DNA of 64,000 nt from Escherichia coli (lineage in GTDB: Bacteria > Pseudomonadota > Gammaproteobacteria > Enterobacterales > Enterobacteriaceae): NCBI RefSeq assembly GCF_003790525.1, contig NZ_CP033635.1; one strand, 5' to 3'. The position numbers and the translations under genes were made by a program. The number at the start of each line of letters is the position of its first letter. Position 1 is the stretch's first letter. Below the pieces are notes generated by a model that was not told where the DNA came from, did no database searches, and saw nothing but the letters and a program-made list of their open reading frames with translations. Positions 11,066-21,550 of the stretch are shown here, one piece after another.

Positions 11066-12189
11066 TGCGCCATTTACGCAATATTTTTAATCTGGGTATC
11101 AAAGAGTTGCGCAGTTTGCTCGGTGATAAAGCGATGCTGACGCTGATTGTCTTCTCGTTTACGGTGTCGGTGTATTCGTCAGCGACCGTTACGCCAGGAT
11201 CGTTGAACCTCGCGCCGATCGCCATTGCCGATATGGATCAATCGCAGTTATCGAACAGGATCGTTAACAGCTTCTATCGCCCGTGGTTTTTGCCACCGGA
11301 GATGATCACCGCCGATGAGATGGATGCCGGGCTGGACGCCGGACGCTATACCTTCGCGATAAATATTCCGCCTAATTTTCAGCGTGATGTCCTCGCCGGA
11401 CGCCAGCCAGATATTCAGGTGAACGTCGATGCCACGCGCATGAGCCAGGCATTTACCGGCAACGGGTATATCCAGAATATTATCAACGGTGAAGTGAACA
11501 GCTTTGTCGCGCGCTACCGTGATAACAGCGAACCGTTGGTATCGCTGGAAACCCGGATGCGCTTTAACCCGAACCTCGATCCCGCGTGGTTTGGCGGGGT
11601 GATGGCGATCATCAACAACATTACCATGCTGGCGATTGTGTTGACCGGATCGGCACTGATCCGCGAGCGTGAACACGGCACGGTGGAACACTTACTGGTG
11701 ATGCCGATAACGCCGTTTGAGATCATGATGGCAAAGGTCTGGTCGATGGGGCTGGTGGTGCTGGTGGTGTCGGGATTATCGCTGGTGCTGATGGTGAAAG
11801 GTGTACTGGGTGTACCGATTGAAGGCTCGATCCCGCTGTTTATGCTGGGCGTGGCGCTCAGTCTGTTTGCCACCACGTCAATCGGCATTTTTATGGGGAC
11901 GATAGCGCGTTCAATGCCGCAACTGGGGCTGCTGGTGATTCTGGTGCTGCTGCCGCTGCAAATGCTTTCCGGTGGCTCCACGCCGCGCGAAAGTATGCCG
12001 CAGATGGTGCAGGACATTATGTTGACCATGCCGACGACACACTTTGTCAGCCTCGCGCAGGCCATTCTCTACCGTGGTGCCGGATTCGAAATCGTCTGGC
12101 CGCAGTTCCTGACGCTGATGGCAATTGGCGGCGCGTTTTTTACCATTGCGCTGCTGCGATTCAGGAAGACGATTGGGACAATGGCGTAA
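11062..12189 (+). CDS. yhhJ: ABC-2 family transporter permease YhhJ
   Basis: Start taken at ATG 11062 ([18 protein letters not shown]...), overlapping the rbbA stop TGA; 375 aa, hydrophobic C-terminal half. Confidence 0.85.
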
Positions 12190-12200
12190 GGAAGGGAAAC

Positions 12201-12250
12201 TTGACTTCATATTGTGATGTCATACTATTGATGTCATAAAGTGAAGTCAT
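12201..12250 (+). promoter_or_regulatory. Putative sigma70 promoter and operator repeats of the HicA/HicB-like operon
   Basis: TTGACT (12201-12206), 16-bp spacer, TACTAT (12223-12228); inverted repeat TGACTTCA (12202-12209) / TGAAGTCA (12242-12249) and direct repeats TGATGTCATA; AAGGA SD at 12251-12255. Confidence 0.35.
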
Positions 12251-12305
12251 AAGGACATGCCATGAGAACCCTGGTACAGGCTTTACGGAAGAAACAAAAA
12301 ATACA

Positions 12306-12536
12306 TTGGATCAAATATTTAAATCTCCTGTTCCTCAAGGGATTAAGTGGTCTGATATAGAGTCACTGGTTAAAGCATTAGGCGGAGAAATTAAGGAAGG
12401 AAGAGGTTCGCGTTGTAAGTTCATACTAAATATGAGCGTTGCGTGTTTCCATCGGCCTCATCCGTCGCCAGATACCGATAAAGGCGCTGTAGAAAGCGTG
12501 CGTGACTGGTTACTAAGTATAGGGGTAAAACCATGA
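12306..12536 (+). CDS. HicA-like toxin (YcfA/HicA family); TTG start as drawn, possibly frameshifted relative to an upstream ATG at 12262
   Basis: Core IKWSDIESLVKALGGEIKEGRGSRCKF...FHRPHP...VRDWLLSIGV resembles HicA-family mRNA interferase toxins; stop overlaps the downstream antitoxin ATG (ATGA). See finding on the A6 tract. Confidence 0.55.
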   Translation: MDQIFKSPVPQGIKWSDIESLVKALGGEIKEGRGSRCKFILNMSVACFHRPHPSPDTDKGAVESVRDWLLSIGVKP

Positions 12537-12892
12537 TCAAACTGAAGACGCCAAACTCTATGGAGATTGCCGGGCAACCTGCTGTTATCACTTACGTGCC
12601 AGAACTGAATGCATTTCGTGGCAAATTCCTGGGCTTGTCAGGTTATTGTGATTTTGTCTCTGACAGCATTCAGGGGCTGCAAAAAGAAGGGGAGCTTTCC
12701 CTGCGAGAGTATCTTGAGGATTGTAAAGCTGCGGGTATTGAGCCGTATGCGCGTACAGAAAAGATTAAGACCTTTACATTACGCTATCCAGAATCGCTGA
12801 GTGAACGCCTTAATAATGCGGCTGCGCAGCAACAAGTCTCTGTAAATACTTATATTATTGAAACGCTAAATGAGCGTTTGAATCATTTATAA
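12533..12892 (+). CDS. HicB-like antitoxin with C-terminal ribbon-helix-helix DNA-binding domain
   Basis: 119-aa ORF; N-terminal HicB-like region (YxGxF...EDCKAAGIEP) and C-terminal RHH-like TLRYPESLSERLNNAAAQQQVSVNTYIIETLNERL; AGGGG SD; overlaps toxin stop. Confidence 0.65.
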   Translation: MIKLKTPNSMEIAGQPAVITYVPELNAFRGKFLGLSGYCDFVSDSIQGLQKEGELSLREYLEDCKAAGIEPYARTEKIKTFTLRYPESLSERLNNAAAQQQVSVNTYIIETLNERLNHL

Positions 12893-12941
12893 CTTATAGC
12901 GGCCCAACAATTTCTGTTGCGCCGCTATATTTTTGTGGCTC

Positions 12942-13802
12942 TTAAGATGCCTTTCTAATCAATCGATGCCCCTCATTCATCATCAGGATTTTGCTATACA
13001 CATCTTCCTCGACGGCATTTTTTGCTGATGCCATCACTCGTGCCAGATTCGCCTCGTTGTGATTATTCACATACGCTTTGCCGACGGCAGTGATAAACGC
13101 TTTGCGCAGATCGCTGGCGATATTCACTTTAGCGACGCGATAATTAACGAAACTGCGTAATATCTCCGGGGCGATACCGGAGCCGCCGTGAATAACCAGC
13201 GGCACCGGGCTGACTTCGGCAATGCGCTTCAGCAGGGGGATATCGATCCGCGGTATATCGTCCAGGCCATGAACGTTACCAATAGAAACTGCCAGCATGT
13301 CGCAACCGGTGCGTTCGACAAAGGTCTTCACCTTTTCCGGTTCCGTTTTGCAATCGGCTTCGCTGACGTGATCGTCTTCTTTGCCGAGAATCGCCCCCAG
13401 CTCCGCTTCAACCGGTACGCCATAGGATTTACAGAAATCGACAGCTTCCTGGGTGAAAGCGATATTCTCTTCAAAAGAGAATGCGGCACCGTCAATCATG
13501 ACCGAGGTAAAGCCCGCGCGCACCGCCTGTTTAACATCCTCCTGAGTTTTCCCGTGATCAAGATGAAGACTGACCGGAACATCCATTTTATCAGCGTGAC
13601 GTTTCACGATTTCATAAATGTAATCGTATCCCGACAGTTGTGCATTGGTGGGCGCAATCTGAATGAAGTTGGGTAATCCTGAACGCTCAATGGCGTTTAA
13701 AATTGAAATCGTTGTCTCCAGATTGGTGGTATTAAATGCGCCCGCTAATACCCGTTTTTCCTGAATGCGGTCGAGCAGTATCCGTCCATTAACTAATGGC
13801 AT
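12942..13802 (-). CDS. Class II ketose-bisphosphate aldolase (GatY/KbaY/FbaA family)
   Basis: 286-aa ORF with zinc-site motif SLHLDHG and GxxHG typical of class II tagatose/fructose-bisphosphate aldolases; last gene of the minus-strand PTS operon. Confidence 0.8.
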   Translation of the reverse strand: MPLVNGRILLDRIQEKRVLAGAFNTTNLETTISILNAIERSGLPNFIQIAPTNAQLSGYDYIYEIVKRHADKMDVPVSLHLDHGKTQEDVKQAVRAGFTSVMIDGAAFSFEENIAFTQEAVDFCKSYGVPVEAELGAILGKEDDHVSEADCKTEPEKVKTFVERTGCDMLAVSIGNVHGLDDIPRIDIPLLKRIAEVSPVPLVIHGGSGIAPEILRSFVNYRVAKVNIASDLRKAFITAVGKAYVNNHNEANLARVMASAKNAVEEDVYSKILMMNEGHRLIRKAS

Positions 13803-13833
13803 ATTGAAAACCTCATCTTTTAATATCAGTTAA

Positions 13834-14103
13834 TTATTCAGCTTCACCGAAGCGGTCGCGAAATAAGGTAGTGAGAGTTTGTATTGCCTCGTTTTCATCA
13901 TCACCTTCGCAGCGTATTTCCACCGTTTTTCCGCCTTTTATTCCGGCGCGCATAATATTCATCATGCTGGTGGCATTAATATCATTACCTTCATAATGCA
14001 GCGTCACTTTACAGCTATATTTTTTGGCGGCTTTCGCCAGACAGGCCGCCGGACGTGCATGCAGGCCAGTACTGTTTCTGACCTCCACGGTTTTACTCAA
14101 CAT
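13834..14103 (-). CDS. HPr-family phosphocarrier protein (operon-dedicated paralog)
   Basis: 89-aa ORF with active-site His15 context GLHARPA and HPr-like length; start overlaps the kinase stop by 11 nt. Confidence 0.8.
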   Translation of the reverse strand: MLSKTVEVRNSTGLHARPAACLAKAAKKYSCKVTLHYEGNDINATSMMNIMRAGIKGGKTVEIRCEGDDENEAIQTLTTLFRDRFGEAE

Positions 14104-15601
14104 AGTGCTCCTCCCGATGATGTAATGGCATCACGCCTTCTTGCTGTAATTTCAACTGATACCAGCTTTTCCATTTGTGCTGATAACGCTGTAATTGATG
14201 GTATCTCGCCCGATTCGGTAACAAACGTTGGGCTATGGTGACTTGCGGCGGTGGAATATCCGGTGCGGCGGTTAATAATGCTCCGACAGAAACCGCCTCG
14301 TTAAATGCAATTGCTTCAACCGGACGCTGTAAAATATCCGCCTTTAATTGCAGCCAAAGGGGATTACGGGTTGCCGGACCTATCACTTTTAACGCGCTGG
14401 TGCCGGGCACATTAAAACAGGCGAAGCAGTTGGCAAATTCCATGGTTAATCCCAGTGAGACGCTGGCAATTAACATATCGATATTTAACGTATCGCCAAG
14501 CCCATAAAATAATCCTCGGGTATGGCGATTTTTATAGGGCGAACCCGAACCGCGAAGATGCGGAATAAAAACGGGAATGTCATCGAGCGACCAGTTCCCC
14601 GCCAGGTAATCCGCATGTCCGCGAGTAAGTGATGCGGCGATCTCCTCATCGGTTAGCCGGAACGTGTTGCGCAGCCACTCCAGAGCGAAACCGCCCACCG
14701 GCAGCGACGCAAACAGGGTGAACTGGTTTGCAAGCGAATAACAGCCGTTTGCCAGCTTGTCACGTTTGGCATGTTCATCCAGCGTCGGTTGTGTATCCAG
14801 TTGCAGAATGCCTTCTGTGGTGCCCGTCGAGTTAAGGATATCGCCCGGCGTCATCTGCAACGCCCGCGCACCCACCATATGGTCATGCCCGGCCAGCGTC
14901 ACGCTGACCGGTTGCAAGAACCCAAGCGTTTTGCAGAGCGACTCGCTGACCCATCCGGCGTGCTCGCCTGGCTGCACCAATGGCGCAAATGCTGAACAGG
15001 GAACGTGTAACAACGCCGCCGCTTTCGCTGACCATTCGCCTTTACGCACGTCCAGACACAGCGTACGGCTGGCTAAGGTGATATCCGTACGCTGTTCGCC
15101 AGTCAGCCGCCAGAGCAGTACTTCCGGCGCATGTAGCCAACGCAGGCCGCGGCGATTACGCAGTGGATAATGCTCCAGCAACCAACGCATTTTGAAGGCA
15201 GAGTAATTGCTGTGCAGCGGTAGCCCGCAGATGTCATAAAGCGCCGCACTGTCTGCCTCACTAAGCGTTGCCAGGTACTCTTCACCGCGGCGGTCATACC
15301 ATGCCAGCATTGGCGTCAGGATCTCGCCATGCTCGTCAAGAAACACCCCTGACTCGCCAAAACTGGCAATGCTTATCCGCCTGACCGGCAGCGGCGAAGC
15401 GGCGCTCAGTTGCGCTATTGCCTGGCGGACCTCCTGCCAGAGGGCGTCGATATCGAAATCGACATCGCCCTGTGGGGAGATCTGTTTTGCCGTCACGAAT
15501 TTATGCGCGCCCAACGTCGTTGCATCCAGGCAGGAAAAGCAGGTGACTTTGCAATTGGTGGTGCCAATATCGATAACGATAGCTGCGCTGTTATCAGGCA
15601 T
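14093..15601 (-). CDS. FGGY-family carbohydrate kinase
   Basis: 502-aa ORF with FGGY N-terminal motif VIDIGTTNCK and two actin-like ATPase halves; overlaps the EIIC stop by 8 nt. Confidence 0.75.
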   Translation of the reverse strand: MPDNSAAIVIDIGTTNCKVTCFSCLDATTLGAHKFVTAKQISPQGDVDFDIDALWQEVRQAIAQLSAASPLPVRRISIASFGESGVFLDEHGEILTPMLAWYDRRGEEYLATLSEADSAALYDICGLPLHSNYSAFKMRWLLEHYPLRNRRGLRWLHAPEVLLWRLTGEQRTDITLASRTLCLDVRKGEWSAKAAALLHVPCSAFAPLVQPGEHAGWVSESLCKTLGFLQPVSVTLAGHDHMVGARALQMTPGDILNSTGTTEGILQLDTQPTLDEHAKRDKLANGCYSLANQFTLFASLPVGGFALEWLRNTFRLTDEEIAASLTRGHADYLAGNWSLDDIPVFIPHLRGSGSPYKNRHTRGLFYGLGDTLNIDMLIASVSLGLTMEFANCFACFNVPGTSALKVIGPATRNPLWLQLKADILQRPVEAIAFNEAVSVGALLTAAPDIPPPQVTIAQRLLPNRARYHQLQRYQHKWKSWYQLKLQQEGVMPLHHREEHYVE

Positions 15602-16952
15602 AAACCGTGCTCCGCGTCATTCGGAAAATGCCATACAGTACCAGGGCGATAACCGGCACCAGACCAATGGCGATGAGATTGCCGTTGAAGATTTCCAGCA
15701 GCCAGAAGCGGAACGGGTTACCGCCATCAAGGAAACTGGAAACCTGGCCGCTGGAGCCTTCGGCAAATTTGAAGTTAACGTCTTTCGCCATTCCGGTAAT
15801 AAACGGCGCGATTTTAGTGGCAATCCACAGGTCGGCAATAATCACCGGGATCGCCGCCAGAACGGTGCGGAAAATATTGCCACGGCTGGCTAAAGCAATC
15901 ATCGACGCCATTACCGCCAGGTTGGCAAGGTCACCAAGCGGCAGGACTTCATTACCTGGGAGGACAAACGCGATAAAGACCGAGATTGGCGTCAGCAGCA
16001 GGGCGGTGGAGATAATCGCCGGGTTACCTACGGCAACGGCGATATCCAGGCCGATATAGAGATCGTCACGGTCAGGGTATTTGGCATTGAGATACTTTTT
16101 AATGGCTTCAGACAGCGGTAATAAACCTTCCATCAGGATGCGTACCATGCGTGGCAGGATGAACATCACACCGCCAATGCTGATGCCAAGCAGCAAGACT
16201 TTTTTGAAATCGTATCCGGCAATTACGCCGAGCAGAATGCCCAGAATAGTGCCAACCATCATCGGTTCGCCGAAGATGCCAAACTTTTTCTGTACGGTTT
16301 CCGGGTCGATATGAATACGATTGAGGCCAGGGATATGGTCGATGATTTTGTCGACCAGCAGACCGACCGGGAAGAACACCACCGAAGAGAGCGTCGGCAA
16401 TGAGATCCCTTCCAGGCCAAAGTATTTTTGTACCAGTGGCGCAGACCAGTCGGCGAGTTTTAGCACCACCACTGCGGCAATCGCGGCCGCCAGCAAACCA
16501 AAGAACAGGCTGCCGGTGCTGTAATAAACCAGCGTACCGGCAAGGGCAAAATGCCAGTAGTTCCACATATCTACATCAACGGTGCGGGTTTTATTCAACG
16601 CCAGCATTGCGACATTAATCAGAATGGTCAGGGGAATAACAAACGGGGCAATTGGCGACCCCCAGGTAATGGCAGAAAGCGGCGGCCAGCCTAAATCCAC
16701 CACCGGTAAATTAATTCCGGTGCGTTCAACCATCGCCTGGGCCGCTGGCCCGACATTGCTGGTAAGAATATCGAAAATGGCATAAATACCGACAAAACCA
16801 ATGCCGACCGTTAATGACGAGCGTAAGGCTTTAGCGGGTTTTACTTTAAAACAGAGAGCAAGAATAAATAACACCAACGGCAACATTACCGTGGGGCCAA
16901 ATCCCAATATATATTGCACAATATTATAGAGGGTATGCGCGATATCGTTCAT
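15594..16952 (-). CDS. PTS galactitol-family EIIC permease
   Basis: Start taken at the internal ATG (MNDIAHTLYNIV...) preceded by AAGAGG; 452 aa, polytopic, collinear with GatC-type IIC proteins. Confidence 0.8.
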   Translation of the reverse strand: MNDIAHTLYNIVQYILGFGPTVMLPLVLFILALCFKVKPAKALRSSLTVGIGFVGIYAIFDILTSNVGPAAQAMVERTGINLPVVDLGWPPLSAITWGSPIAPFVIPLTILINVAMLALNKTRTVDVDMWNYWHFALAGTLVYYSTGSLFFGLLAAAIAAVVVLKLADWSAPLVQKYFGLEGISLPTLSSVVFFPVGLLVDKIIDHIPGLNRIHIDPETVQKKFGIFGEPMMVGTILGILLGVIAGYDFKKVLLLGISIGGVMFILPRMVRILMEGLLPLSEAIKKYLNAKYPDRDDLYIGLDIAVAVGNPAIISTALLLTPISVFIAFVLPGNEVLPLGDLANLAVMASMIALASRGNIFRTVLAAIPVIIADLWIATKIAPFITGMAKDVNFKFAEGSSGQVSSFLDGGNPFRFWLLEIFNGNLIAIGLVPVIALVLYGIFRMTRSTVYA

Positions 16953-17025
16953 AATAAACCTCTTTTTCAGGCGAGAGCGCACCTCGCGTTAGCGCCTGAT
17001 GGAGTGGGTTGGAATTAATTATTAA

Positions 17026-17307
17026 TTACTTTTTAAGAATCGAAACAATTTGCGCCAGCACTTTCTCTTCGCCAATACCGGTAATAATGGGTAAGCCGTT
17101 AACCACCGGCACGTCGAGTTCATAAGGCACTTTAGTCGTTGAAACAACCAGCGCTACGCCGTCGGTATTACCGGGTAAAGAGGCAACGTTGGTTTGGGAA
17201 TAATTGACGTTAAGGCCGTGCTCTTTGCAATACTCCATGACTTTTTCTGTTACCGCCGTGGATGTGGCAATACCTGTGGCGCAGACAAATAAAATGGTTT
17301 GACTCAT
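17026..17307 (-). CDS. PTS galactitol-family EIIB
   Basis: 93-aa ORF with N-terminal phospho-Cys context ILFVCATGIATS. Confidence 0.8.
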   Translation of the reverse strand: MSQTILFVCATGIATSTAVTEKVMEYCKEHGLNVNYSQTNVASLPGNTDGVALVVSTTKVPYELDVPVVNGLPIITGIGEEKVLAQIVSILKK

Positions 17308-17789
17308 ATTTCACCTCGTTCATTCATTTTGTTTAAGATTACTGTGTGTATTTCTGTTGTTTCCATCGTAAGCAAGGCTTGCATAAAGGGCGTATCCTGA
17401 ATCATCTCCATAATCCAGCCCAGGGCATTTAATTGTTTGTTACTTTCGCTTAAGGCGAGCAAAAAAATCACCCTGACAGGCACGGGATCAGGGTCGCCGC
17501 CCATATCGGCAAACTCTACCGGCTCTGGCAAAATACCGACGGCAATTGCATTGTGCCGGACATGTTTATGGTCCGTGTGCGGAATGGCGACGCACGGTGG
17601 TTCGGTAGGCAGCCCCGTTGGATACGTCGCCTCACGTTTCAGTACGTGATTGGCAAAATCAGGGACCACCAGCTCAGCAGCAACCAACGGTTGCGCTAAC
17701 TGACGGATGATCTGTTCAACGCTTAACCCTGCCGGAAGTCGTTGAATATAATTTTCCTGAAACTGTATGCCTTGCATTTTATTCCTCAT
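17304..17789 (-). CDS. PTS EIIA (mannitol/fructose-type EIIA-2 fold)
   Basis: 161-aa ORF with AIPH phospho-His motif; 4-nt overlap with EIIB start. Confidence 0.75.
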   Translation of the reverse strand: MRNKMQGIQFQENYIQRLPAGLSVEQIIRQLAQPLVAAELVVPDFANHVLKREATYPTGLPTEPPCVAIPHTDHKHVRHNAIAVGILPEPVEFADMGGDPDPVPVRVIFLLALSESNKQLNALGWIMEMIQDTPFMQALLTMETTEIHTVILNKMNERGEI

Positions 17790-17801
17790 AAAAAAGTGTA
17801 T

Positions 17802-18548
17802 TTAACTCACTTCCCGCCGTTGCAGCACGGTGCCCAGATAATATTTATTTCCTTTTAACCAGACGTTGCCAAACTCAACGGGTAACTCTCGGGAGAAAAA
17901 GACTAACTGCTCCAGATGCAAAACGGGTGCATCTTCACTGATATCTAAAAAATGACCGCGTTCATTACCAATTAATCGCGCGGCATAGCGACTTTCCGAG
18001 TAACGAATTTTTCTTTGCGACAAACTTTCTATTGTTGGAAATAAATTGTGTTGATTAAAATCGATTTCCACGATGCCGGGGCATAGCTCAATATTGATAC
18101 GGTTCTCTATCAGCATCGCTTTTTCATCACCAATTGAACGTAAACGCTCAAGGTAAAGAATATCCTGACCGGGCGTTATTCTTAATTTCTCTGCCACATA
18201 ACGATTAGCCGGTTCAATCCGTGACGTAATAACTTCAGTGGTAAAATGTATTTTCTGGCTTTCCAGCGATTCCGCGAATGACAATAATCCTTCACCTAAC
18301 GGATATGCCACGTTCTCTTTTTTGACAAAAGTTCCCTTCCCCTGGACCTGAATCAACACGCCTTCTTTTACCAGTTGGGCGACCGCTTTTTTAACGGTTC
18401 CCCGACTCACTTCCAGCATATCCATAATCTGGTATTCCGAAGGAATGCGATCGTCTTCCACCAGATCCCCGGTATAAATACTTTCTCTTATCCACTCCAC
18501 CACTTGTTGATAGAGCGGTATTTGTGACGACTTACTTAATGATTTCAT
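17802..18548 (-). CDS. GntR/HutC-family transcriptional regulator (HTH plus UTRA effector domain)
   Basis: Track ORF to 18557 (GTG); ATG at 18546-18548 (MKSLSKSSQIPLYQQ...) with AGGTG SD preferred. N-terminal GntR wHTH (SEYQIMDMLEVSRGTVKKAVAQL). Confidence 0.8.
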   Translation of the reverse strand: MKSLSKSSQIPLYQQVVEWIRESIYTGDLVEDDRIPSEYQIMDMLEVSRGTVKKAVAQLVKEGVLIQVQGKGTFVKKENVAYPLGEGLLSFAESLESQKIHFTTEVITSRIEPANRYVAEKLRITPGQDILYLERLRSIGDEKAMLIENRINIELCPGIVEIDFNQHNLFPTIESLSQRKIRYSESRYAARLIGNERGHFLDISEDAPVLHLEQLVFFSRELPVEFGNVWLKGNKYYLGTVLQRREVS

Positions 18549-18571
18549 GGCGCGCACCTGAACATTTACAG

Positions 18572-18585
18572 TTGTCTATGGACAA
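18572..18585 (-). promoter_or_regulatory. Putative GntR-family operator upstream of the PTS regulator
   Basis: Palindrome TTGTCTATGGACAA matching the GntR/HutC consensus, followed by a direct repeat GACAA; lies just upstream of the regulator start. Confidence 0.4.
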
Positions 18586-18746
18586 TCATGGACAACTTCA
18601 AGCGTATAGTAGGTGAACGGGAGAAAAAGAGGATCGAAGCGTCTCACATTTTGAGGGACCAAATCGTGATCAAAAAAATGTGACGTGAGTCGATATTTGG
18701 CAGGAATTTACTGCGCCGTCAGGAAATAACGGCGCGTGGGTAGGTG

Positions 18747-21550
<2,804 letters not shown>

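Follow-up and report, generated by a model that had tools for sequence, protein, structure and literature searches.

A widespread Escherichia coli operon combining a galactitol-type phosphotransferase system, an FGGY kinase and a class II aldolase: a candidate system for ketose catabolism

The window analysed here, a 64,000-nucleotide stretch of Escherichia coli DNA (RefSeq assembly GCF_003790525.1, contig NZ_CP033635.1), carries at positions 12942-18548 seven intact minus-strand genes for a galactitol-type phosphotransferase system (PTS), an FGGY-family kinase and a class II aldolase, which we are inclined to read as an operon for the catabolism of a ketose. In the 5′ to 3′ direction, the genes encode a GntR/HutC-family regulator of 248 residues (17802-18548), whose orthologs carry PF00392 and PF07702 (UTRA); an EIIA component of the PTS_EIIA_2 type (157 residues, 17304-17777, with an alternative ATG at 17789); a Gat-type EIIB (93 residues, 17026-17307); an EIIC of the galactitol (Gat) family (452 residues, 15594-16952, with an alternative GTG at 16982); an FGGY-family carbohydrate kinase (502 residues, 14093-15601); an HPr paralog of 89 residues with His15 and Ser46 (13834-14103); and, placed by profile match in the NF005943/PRK07998 family, a class II (zinc) ketose-phosphate aldolase of 286 residues (12942-13802). 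They agree with the RefSeq annotation of E. coli SMS-3-5 (NC_010498.1), a sequence 100% identical to the window. All seven reading frames and their families agree with a preliminary description of the locus made from the sequence alone.

The genes are tightly packed. A base-by-base check of the junctions revealed overlaps of 4 nucleotides between the EIIA stop and EIIB (ATGA), 8 nucleotides between the EIIC stop and the kinase, and 11 nucleotides between the kinase stop and HPr, as first described, while the remaining intergenic gaps measure 24, 73 and 31 nucleotides. A Shine-Dalgarno-like motif precedes all seven start codons. The operon occupies a chromosomal site with nikR (18747-19148) on one side and hicBA-yhhJ on the other, and the absence of dehydrogenase and isomerase genes noted at the outset held for this whole interval: no dehydrogenase, isomerase or epimerase gene lies within or beside the operon between nikR and hicBA/yhhJ. 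G+C content is highest in the EIIC and kinase genes (0.51-0.55) and lower in the other five (0.43-0.49), with neighbouring genes at 0.55-0.56. Because the block is kept at 95% DNA identity or more in 1635 further complete genomes and the cassette recurs across phyla, the reading frames do not reflect chance. The block is an intact operon for sugar uptake and breakdown.

The transport proteins are most similar to the galactitol system. EIIC matched TIGR00827 along 406 of the model's 407 positions (476 bits, E = 8e-143) but fell short of the galactitol-specific cut-off of 542, and its orthologs carry PF03611; it is of the EIIC-GAT type (PTS galactitol family, TC 4.A.5). The best NCBIfam matches of EIIB and EIIA were GatB (60 bits, cut-off 95) and GatA (57 bits, cut-off 139), so that none of the three components reached its GatA, GatB or GatC equivalog cut-off. 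The columns holding the phosphorylatable residues are at least 95% conserved, both for EIIA His67 (65 homologs) and for EIIB Cys9 (68 homologs). HPr scored 103.5 bits against TIGR01003 (cut-off 47.9), and its His15 is invariant across 37 cassette HPrs. Judged by these residues, the phosphorelay of HPr His15, EIIA His, EIIB Cys and Gat-type EIIC is intact.

The HPr gene, taken at first to be dedicated to the operon, is real, but its presence and position are not constant: Firmicute core cassettes have no HPr, and two HPr lineages with only 46% identity to each other occur in otherwise orthologous enterobacterial cassettes. In Escherichia and Citrobacter the protein has Ser46 and is encoded ahead of the aldolase, whereas in Salmonella, Klebsiella and Rahnella it has Gly46 and is encoded after the aldolase; the latter lineage is also found in the polyol cassettes described below. 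This implies that HPr was replaced in the Escherichia/Citrobacter line; the cassette HPr is a replaceable accessory and no fixed partner of the kinase. Synteny does not support the idea that HPr partners or regulates the kinase specifically, in the manner of the HPr-LsrK and HPr-GlpK pairs: the two genes adjoin only in Escherichia and Citrobacter, and the Firmicute cassettes do without HPr.

The kinase matched FGGY profiles only, all of them below cut-off: XylB at 146 bits (equivalog cut-off 380), GlpK at 130 (590), FucK at 120 (471), RhaB at 58 (528) and LsrK at 46 (528). Its close homologs carry PF00370 and PF02782 (FGGY_N and FGGY_C), and in an alignment of 56 sequences D11, G13, T15, D240 and G260-T261 were invariant, which corresponds to the D-x-G-T-T loop, the catalytic Asp and the second G-T-x-x loop. 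Placement among the FGGY subfamilies thus identified a sugar-type FGGY kinase that reaches the cut-off of no characterised subfamily, rather than a non-sugar enzyme. Identity to the K-12 FGGY paralogs is 16-22% (18-22% to FucK and RhaB), and the family is monophyletic with 100/100 bootstrap support, forming a clade separate from these paralogs. An AlphaFold model (pLDDT 94) searched with Foldseek against the PDB matched glycerol, xylulose and gluconate kinases with a TM-score of 0.83, identity not exceeding 22%. The fold, as modelled, is certainly that of an FGGY kinase; the specificity is not certain. A more specific hint comes from the active site: a Gly-His-Asp motif at the catalytic Asp is common only to this kinase family, FucK and RhaB, while XylB, GlpK, LyxK, AraB and LsrK have other residues there. 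Among FGGY kinases, FucK and RhaB are the two whose phosphorylation target is C1 of a 2-ketose. The kinase probably has an activity not yet described for the FGGY family.

For the aldolase, comparison with GatY, KbaY and FbaA showed that none of the three fits. The protein scored below cut-off on all GatY, KbaY and FbaA models (GatY 239 bits against 383, KbaY 182 against 542), and its identity to the K-12 proteins is 37-38% for GatY and KbaY, 34% for FbaA and 36% for YdjI. Instead, it matched NF005943 with 556 bits (cut-off 364), a family that NCBIfam names generically "class II aldolase", and it passed the general ketose-bisphosphate aldolase subfamily model TIGR00167 (220.7 bits, cut-off 215.6). 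The zinc-binding and catalytic residues D82, H83, H178, H205, E142 and N227 are invariant among 87 family members (PF01116), and in 86 of the 87 the catalytic loop, "GKEDD", contains a Lys specific to this family. Arg255 of the E. coli enzyme aligns with the "DPR" Arg that contacts the distal phosphate in AgaY, GatY, KbaY and FbaA, but stands in an "NLAR" context. YdjI, which has a His at this position, is described in an EcoCyc-derived annotation as a monophosphate (octuluronate-1-phosphate) aldolase. The premise of the preliminary description that the aldolase needs a bisphosphate was therefore an assumption: an enzyme of the same fold is annotated as acting on a monophosphate, and the distal-phosphate Arg varies within the family.

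Comparison with characterised sugar systems bore out the view that the operon differs from gat, aga/kba and sgc, and none of the three is orthologous to it as a whole. The gat operon (gatYZABCD-R) likewise combines Gat-family EIIA, EIIB and EIIC with a class II ketose-bisphosphate aldolase. However, it encodes GatD, GatZ and a DeoR-type regulator and no kinase, whereas the operon in the window lacks GatD and GatZ and encodes a GntR-type regulator and an FGGY kinase; identity between the two amounts to 37% for the aldolase, 37% for EIIB, 25% for EIIA and about 44% for EIIC. The aga/kba system relies on a mannose-family EIIABCD, AgaS/AgaA and KbaY/KbaZ, in contrast to the Gat-type EII found here, whose companion aldolase remains far below the KbaY cut-off. 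The sgc operon (sgcXBCQAER) encodes the SgcE epimerase, SgcQ, SgcX and the DeoR-type SgcR, none of which has a counterpart in the operon, and EIIC is 40% identical to SgcC. Among pathways with a FucK- or RhaB-type kinase, those for L-fucose and L-rhamnose (FucK/FucA, RhaB/RhaD) show the same pairing of an FGGY C1-kinase of a 2-ketose with a zinc-dependent dihydroxyacetone phosphate aldolase; yet FucK and RhaB act on free 6-deoxy-ketoses, FucA and RhaD are of unrelated fold and cleave monophosphates, and no PTS is involved.

Closest in logic to the route proposed below are the fru system (FruB, FruK, FruA) and the D-tagatose PTS pathway of Klebsiella and Salmonella (TagT/TagH, TagK, GatY/GatZ). 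The kinases of both belong to the PfkB family and act on a ketose 1-phosphate. Both systems use a fructose-family EII, whereas the operon has a Gat-family EII, an FGGY kinase and an NF005943 aldolase with no accompanying GatZ/KbaZ gene; the tag aldolase, by contrast, needs GatZ. The proposed route may follow the fru/tag logic, the part of the PfkB-type 1-phosphokinase being taken by an FGGY enzyme. In the tag pathway, a ketose monophosphate delivered by the PTS is converted by an ATP-dependent kinase to the ketose 1,6-bisphosphate, which a class II aldolase then cleaves, and a pathway-specific HPr-like carrier takes part (PMC9720028).

Two further E. coli systems were considered as possible identities of the operon and rejected. 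The D-tagatose cluster of E. coli Nissle is likewise an accessory cluster that takes a rare ketohexose via a bisphosphate and a tagatose-bisphosphate aldolase to triose phosphates. It lies at accC/yhdT, encodes a transporter of the ATP-binding cassette (ABC) type and kinases of about 310-320 residues, which is not FGGY size, and differs in phylogroup pattern, the operon being present also in O157:H7. The vpe PTS operon of uropathogenic E. coli is reported to lie in a region that also contains the deoK operon, and no deoK lies near nikR/yhhJ in the window, O157 or K-12; this rejection rests on comparison of the loci.

The operon had been called unusual, a word that overstates the case given its distribution: it is present in about 30% of complete E. 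coli genomes (1637 of 5426), in single copy, on the chromosome and at 95-100% DNA identity, it has a counterpart in Salmonella, and numerous Firmicutes and Actinobacteria possess it too. O157:H7 and urinary-tract strains are among the E. coli carriers; named examples are O157:H7 Sakai (ECs_4349-4355, likewise between nikR and hicBA-yhhJ), CFT073, a strain of ST131 and APEC O1:K1:H7. No plasmid carriage was detected among these genomes, the two matches labelled "plasmid" being records of 4.9 Mb and hence chromosomes. The operon occupies the same site in Escherichia whittamii and Citrobacter amalonaticus. In K-12 MG1655, the nikR-yhhJ interval (3619192-3625514) instead contains rhsB, yhhH and yhhI, including a transposase gene, where the window has the operon and hicAB, which marks this interval as a hotspot for accessory DNA.

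The Salmonella counterpart, STM3779-STM3785, encodes the same seven protein families and shares the operator and promoter motifs of the E. coli operon. Identity reaches 89% for EIIC and the aldolase, 83% for EIIB and 81% for the GntR regulator. The two loci differ in position, the Salmonella genes adjoining uhp rather than nikR/yhhJ, and in their last two genes, which run aldolase-HPr in Salmonella and HPr-aldolase in E. coli and encode HPrs of the two lineages described above. [quoted passage not shown] The Salmonella copy is thus already flagged in the literature as an unknown-sugar island; searches by Salmonella and O157 locus tags and by combinations of enzyme and sugar found no functional characterisation.

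In a protein search, kinase orthologs were 60-80% identical across Enterobacterales and 33-40% identical in other phyla. We chose 80 loci from other species, one genome per species, from the kinase alignment and mapped all operon proteins onto them. Four architectures emerged, written here with R for the regulator, A, B and C for EIIA, EIIB and EIIC, K for the kinase and Ald for the aldolase. The first, R-A-B-C-K with HPr and aldolase, is that of Escherichia, Citrobacter, Salmonella, Klebsiella oxytoca, Cedecea, Rahnella, Trabulsiella and others. The second, R-Ald-A-B-C-K or R-A-B-C-K-Ald, has neither HPr nor any further enzyme and occurs in Enterococcus (ten species), Listeria immobilis, Lacticaseibacillus, Pediococcus, Selenomonas, Centipeda, Pectinatus, Mitsuokella and Coriobacteriia. 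The third, which we term the polyol cassette, adds one to three zinc-dependent dehydrogenases, of which one is GatD-like (238-244 bits; present in Pantoea, Raoultella and Bacillus), and often SurE; it was found in Pantoea, Erwinia, Raoultella, Serratia and Bacillus. The fourth, in Actinobacteria, has no PTS and consists of a major facilitator superfamily or ABC transporter with Ald-K-K2(-K3), where K2 is an XylB-like FGGY kinase.

The kinase and the NF005943 aldolase form an invariant pair in all four architectures. What varies is the second phosphoryl donor, which is a Gat-type PTS in Enterobacterales, Firmicutes, Negativicutes and Coriobacteriia and a second FGGY kinase in Actinobacteria; in the PTS-less loci of Microbacterium, Arthrobacter, Actinoplanes and others, the adjoining XylB-like kinase scored 305-319 bits on TIGR01312. 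Every locus thus has either PTS plus kinase or kinase plus kinase, and therefore two phosphoryl transfers are always encoded. Since the core cassette contains no other conserved enzyme, it must suffice to bring its substrate into central metabolism. The overlap of the EIIC stop with the kinase start likewise recurred in the distant cassettes that were inspected.

Several loci carried additional genes. In Enterococcus raffinosus, E. malodoratus and E. avium, a second cluster directly follows the Gat-PTS/FGGY cassette (at about 11900-20100 of the locus) and encodes an NF005943 aldolase, a PRD/EIIA-domain regulator, mannose-family EIIA, EIIB, EIIC and EIID, a zinc-dependent dehydrogenase and an XylB-like FGGY kinase (350 bits on TIGR01312), which gives this aldolase family a third kind of partnership with a PTS and an FGGY kinase. 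Many PTS-less actinobacterial clusters have three tandem FGGY kinases; the third, of about 450-490 residues and with the G-H-D motif, groups with the kinase family of the operon (91/100) and has no good NCBIfam match. The polyol cassettes of Pantoea, Erwinia, Raoultella and Enterobacter contain a gene for a SurE-type 5'/3'-nucleotidase/phosphatase between HPr and the last dehydrogenase.

The operon proteins evolve at uneven rates. Between E. coli and Enterococcus or Listeria, identity is 76-77% for EIIC, 67-69% for the aldolase and 63-65% for EIIB, and 35-37% for the kinase and EIIA. The values for EIIC, the aldolase and EIIB lie far above cross-phylum expectation and point to horizontal transfer.

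Taken together, these observations lead us to judge it slightly better than an even chance that the block is a self-contained catabolic operon for a ketose, in which phosphorylation by the PTS is followed by conversion to a bisphosphate by the FGGY kinase and aldol cleavage to two triose phosphates. The sugar would enter through EIIC and be phosphorylated at a terminal hydroxyl, as we suppose because galactitol is so treated by GatABC. The FGGY kinase, whose gene is translationally coupled to that of EIIC, would then use ATP to phosphorylate the other end, probably C1 beside the keto group; we favour C1 because the kinase has its Gly-His-Asp motif in common only with the C1-kinases FucK and RhaB. 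Finally, the class II aldolase would split the ketose 1,omega-bisphosphate into dihydroxyacetone phosphate and an aldose phosphate, which would be glyceraldehyde 3-phosphate if the substrate is a hexulose.

Several lines of evidence favour this route. First, the kinase and aldolase are an invariant core joined by either a Gat-type PTS or a second FGGY kinase, which argues for two phosphorylations followed by cleavage. Second, the polyol cassettes with zinc-dependent dehydrogenases in Pantoea, Raoultella, Erwinia and Bacillus resemble the route from galactitol via tagatose 6-phosphate to the bisphosphate. Third, the E. coli aldolase keeps the "DPR"-aligned Arg where YdjI has His, at a position that varies within the family. 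The motif that the kinase has in common with FucK and RhaB and the recurrent overlap of the EIIC and kinase genes count in its favour as well. The sequence of PTS uptake, second phosphorylation and aldol cleavage put forward in the preliminary description is strengthened by the cross-phylum pattern of kinase, aldolase and second donor; its order of steps is not, as the aldolase could also act before the kinase. The operon is a variant of the known fru/tag/gat pathway logic, and one that is widespread rather than rare.

As to the sugar, it would most likely be a hexulose whose bisphosphate the housekeeping FbaA cannot cleave. Given the established stereochemistry of the aldolases, the most economical guess is a 3S ketose other than fructose, such as a tagatose-like or L-sorbose-like hexulose, or a heptulose. 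D-tagatose itself is weakly disfavoured because Salmonella and Klebsiella already have tag genes.

A broader proposal, to which we assign somewhat less than even chances, is that the kinase founds an FGGY subfamily of ketose omega-phosphate 1-kinases and forms with the NF005943 aldolase a hitherto undescribed, horizontally mobile module for double phosphorylation and cleavage of a rare ketose and its polyols. Enterobacterales and Firmicutes would supply this module through a Gat-type PTS, Actinobacteria through a second FGGY kinase. Such a module would give E. coli (the O157:H7, ST131 and CFT073 phylogroups) and Salmonella access to a gut or plant sugar not yet listed among enterobacterial carbon sources. 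If the kinase does act on a ketose phosphate, FGGY chemistry would extend to phosphorylated substrates. The operon is among the larger remaining "known unknowns" of enterobacterial sugar metabolism; identifying its sugar would reveal a further nutrient niche that bears on colonisation of the gut and competition there, and would give a function to a generically named NCBIfam aldolase family; the comparative data narrow the question to a small set of enzyme and growth assays.

Several observations weigh against a kinase acting on a ketose phosphate followed by cleavage of a bisphosphate. We know of no FGGY kinase that acts on a phosphorylated sugar, and our literature searches found none. The grouping of the kinase family with FucK and RhaB has a bootstrap value of only 48/100, and Foldseek matched the FGGY subfamilies about equally (TM-scores of 0.76-0.84), singling out none. 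The position aligned with Arg255 is R in 53%, K in 20% and S in 14% of the 87 NF005943 members, with G, A or N in the rest, and G or A occurs even in close enterobacterial orthologs. Moreover, the kinase diverges much faster than EIIC and the aldolase (37% against 76% and 69% between E. coli and Enterococcus); EIIA diverges like the kinase (37%), and the same contrast appears within Enterobacterales, where E. coli and Salmonella share 89% identity in EIIC and the aldolase, and 63% in the kinase and 61% in EIIA. Lastly, the XylB-like partner kinases found in Actinobacteria share only 22% identity with the one in the second Enterococcus cluster, which also weakens the idea that these partners are one conserved omega-kinase.

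The likeliest alternative is a monophosphate route resembling that of fructose in the liver, in which the PTS would deliver a ketose 1-phosphate, the aldolase would release dihydroxyacetone phosphate and an aldehyde such as glyceraldehyde, and the kinase would serve as a triokinase. Because it calls for the same three activities, it is consistent with every architecture observed, and it requires no FGGY enzyme to act on a sugar phosphate. The kinase has glycerol kinases among its top matches by sequence and by fold, the distal-phosphate Arg is variable in the aldolase family, and a monophosphate aldolase of the same fold exists in YdjI. The details of the active sites point the other way. The Gly-His-Asp motif and, weakly, the tree favour ketose C1-kinases over glycerol kinase; the Arg-Glu motif that follows the conserved strand in GlpK ("NQRETT") is replaced by "FGESG" in the kinase; and the E. 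coli aldolase retains the distal Arg. Furthermore, translational coupling to EIIC in each distant cassette inspected would be surprising for a generic triose kinase. On balance we regard the monophosphate route as unlikely, though it deserves to be kept in view.

Somewhat less probable again is parallel entry, whereby the PTS, acting on external sugar, and the FGGY kinase, acting on free internal sugar, would yield the same monophosphate, with PfkA or PfkB then forming the bisphosphate for the aldolase. This arrangement would leave the FGGY kinase on a conventional, unphosphorylated substrate, and it has a precedent in gat, which uses PfkA for tagatose 6-phosphate and, as confirmed from its gene content, has no kinase gene of its own. 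It does not account for the two or three FGGY kinases that lie beside the aldolase in PTS-less actinobacterial clusters, nor does it explain why all PTS cassettes, whatever their phylum, keep a salvage kinase coupled to EIIC.

Finally, a silenced or decaying acquired island with no current catabolic role, or a set of PTS proteins with a mainly regulatory one, is very improbable: the Salmonella ortholog is described as AT-rich and H-NS-repressed, the E. coli operon has a G+C content of 0.43-0.55 against 0.55-0.56 in its neighbours, and no phenotype is on record, but all seven frames are intact and kept in single copy at 95% DNA identity or more in 1635 genomes, the catalytic and phosphorelay residues are conserved across phyla, and the 2024 transcriptome paper lists the Salmonella genes as active in a caecal community of the permissive kind.

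Upstream of the operon, conservation and spacing outline a regulatory region on the minus strand. A putative -10 box, TACTAT (TATCAT or TATTAT in relatives), lies at 18606-18611, and a CRP-like site, TGTGA-N6-TCGAT, at 18633-18648 would be centred about -41.5 from the transcription start deduced from this box. The distance from TGTGA to the -10 box is 29 nucleotides in both E. coli and Salmonella, and the TGTGA half-site recurs upstream in most other Enterobacterales. This spacing is the geometry of a class II CRP promoter and suggests catabolite control. A simple consensus scan for promoters and terminators returned no more matches than shuffled sequence and missed the conserved promoter region and the CRP-like site.

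Between the -10 box and the regulator start codon, at 18570-18598, lies a putative HutC-type operator, AAGTTGTCCATGATTGTCCATAGACAACT, which contains a direct TTGTCC repeat and the palindrome TTGTC-CATA-GACAA. Of 18 Enterobacterales loci, 16 have the palindrome TGTC(C/T)ATAGACA at this position, and the regulator start context AGGTG-N6-ATG is also conserved in this order. Related TTGTAC / TTGTATATAGACAA repeats occur upstream of the Enterococcus, Listeria, Selenomonas and Mitsuokella cassettes. Because operator-like repeats are kept upstream across phyla, the regulator and its operator probably travelled with the genes. The best NCBIfam matches of the regulator are all HutC-type GntR proteins, each below cut-off, and it is probably an autoregulated repressor. 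In the proposed mechanism it would repress from the TTGTCC/TTGTC-N4-GACAA operator until a sugar phosphate of the pathway binds its UTRA domain.

At the other end of the operon, where the aldolase gene meets the convergent hicB, lies a strong hairpin (12895-12929; -22.9 kcal/mol when folded as RNA, z = -5.6). It is followed by a T-run on the plus strand only, and is likely a shared or bidirectional terminator. Directly downstream of the aldolase gene, at 12306-12892 on the plus strand, is a convergent hicA/hicB toxin-antitoxin module; the same module flanks the operon in O157:H7 Sakai, and RefSeq marks hicA as frameshifted in SMS-3-5. Farther along the window, at 60091-63389 on the plus strand, overlapping genes for a RecQ-family helicase (698 residues) and a DprA-like protein (431 residues) are inserted between yhgN and gntU, and match the PADLOC PsyrT/PsyrA toxin-antitoxin/anti-phage pair with 1058 and 669 bits.

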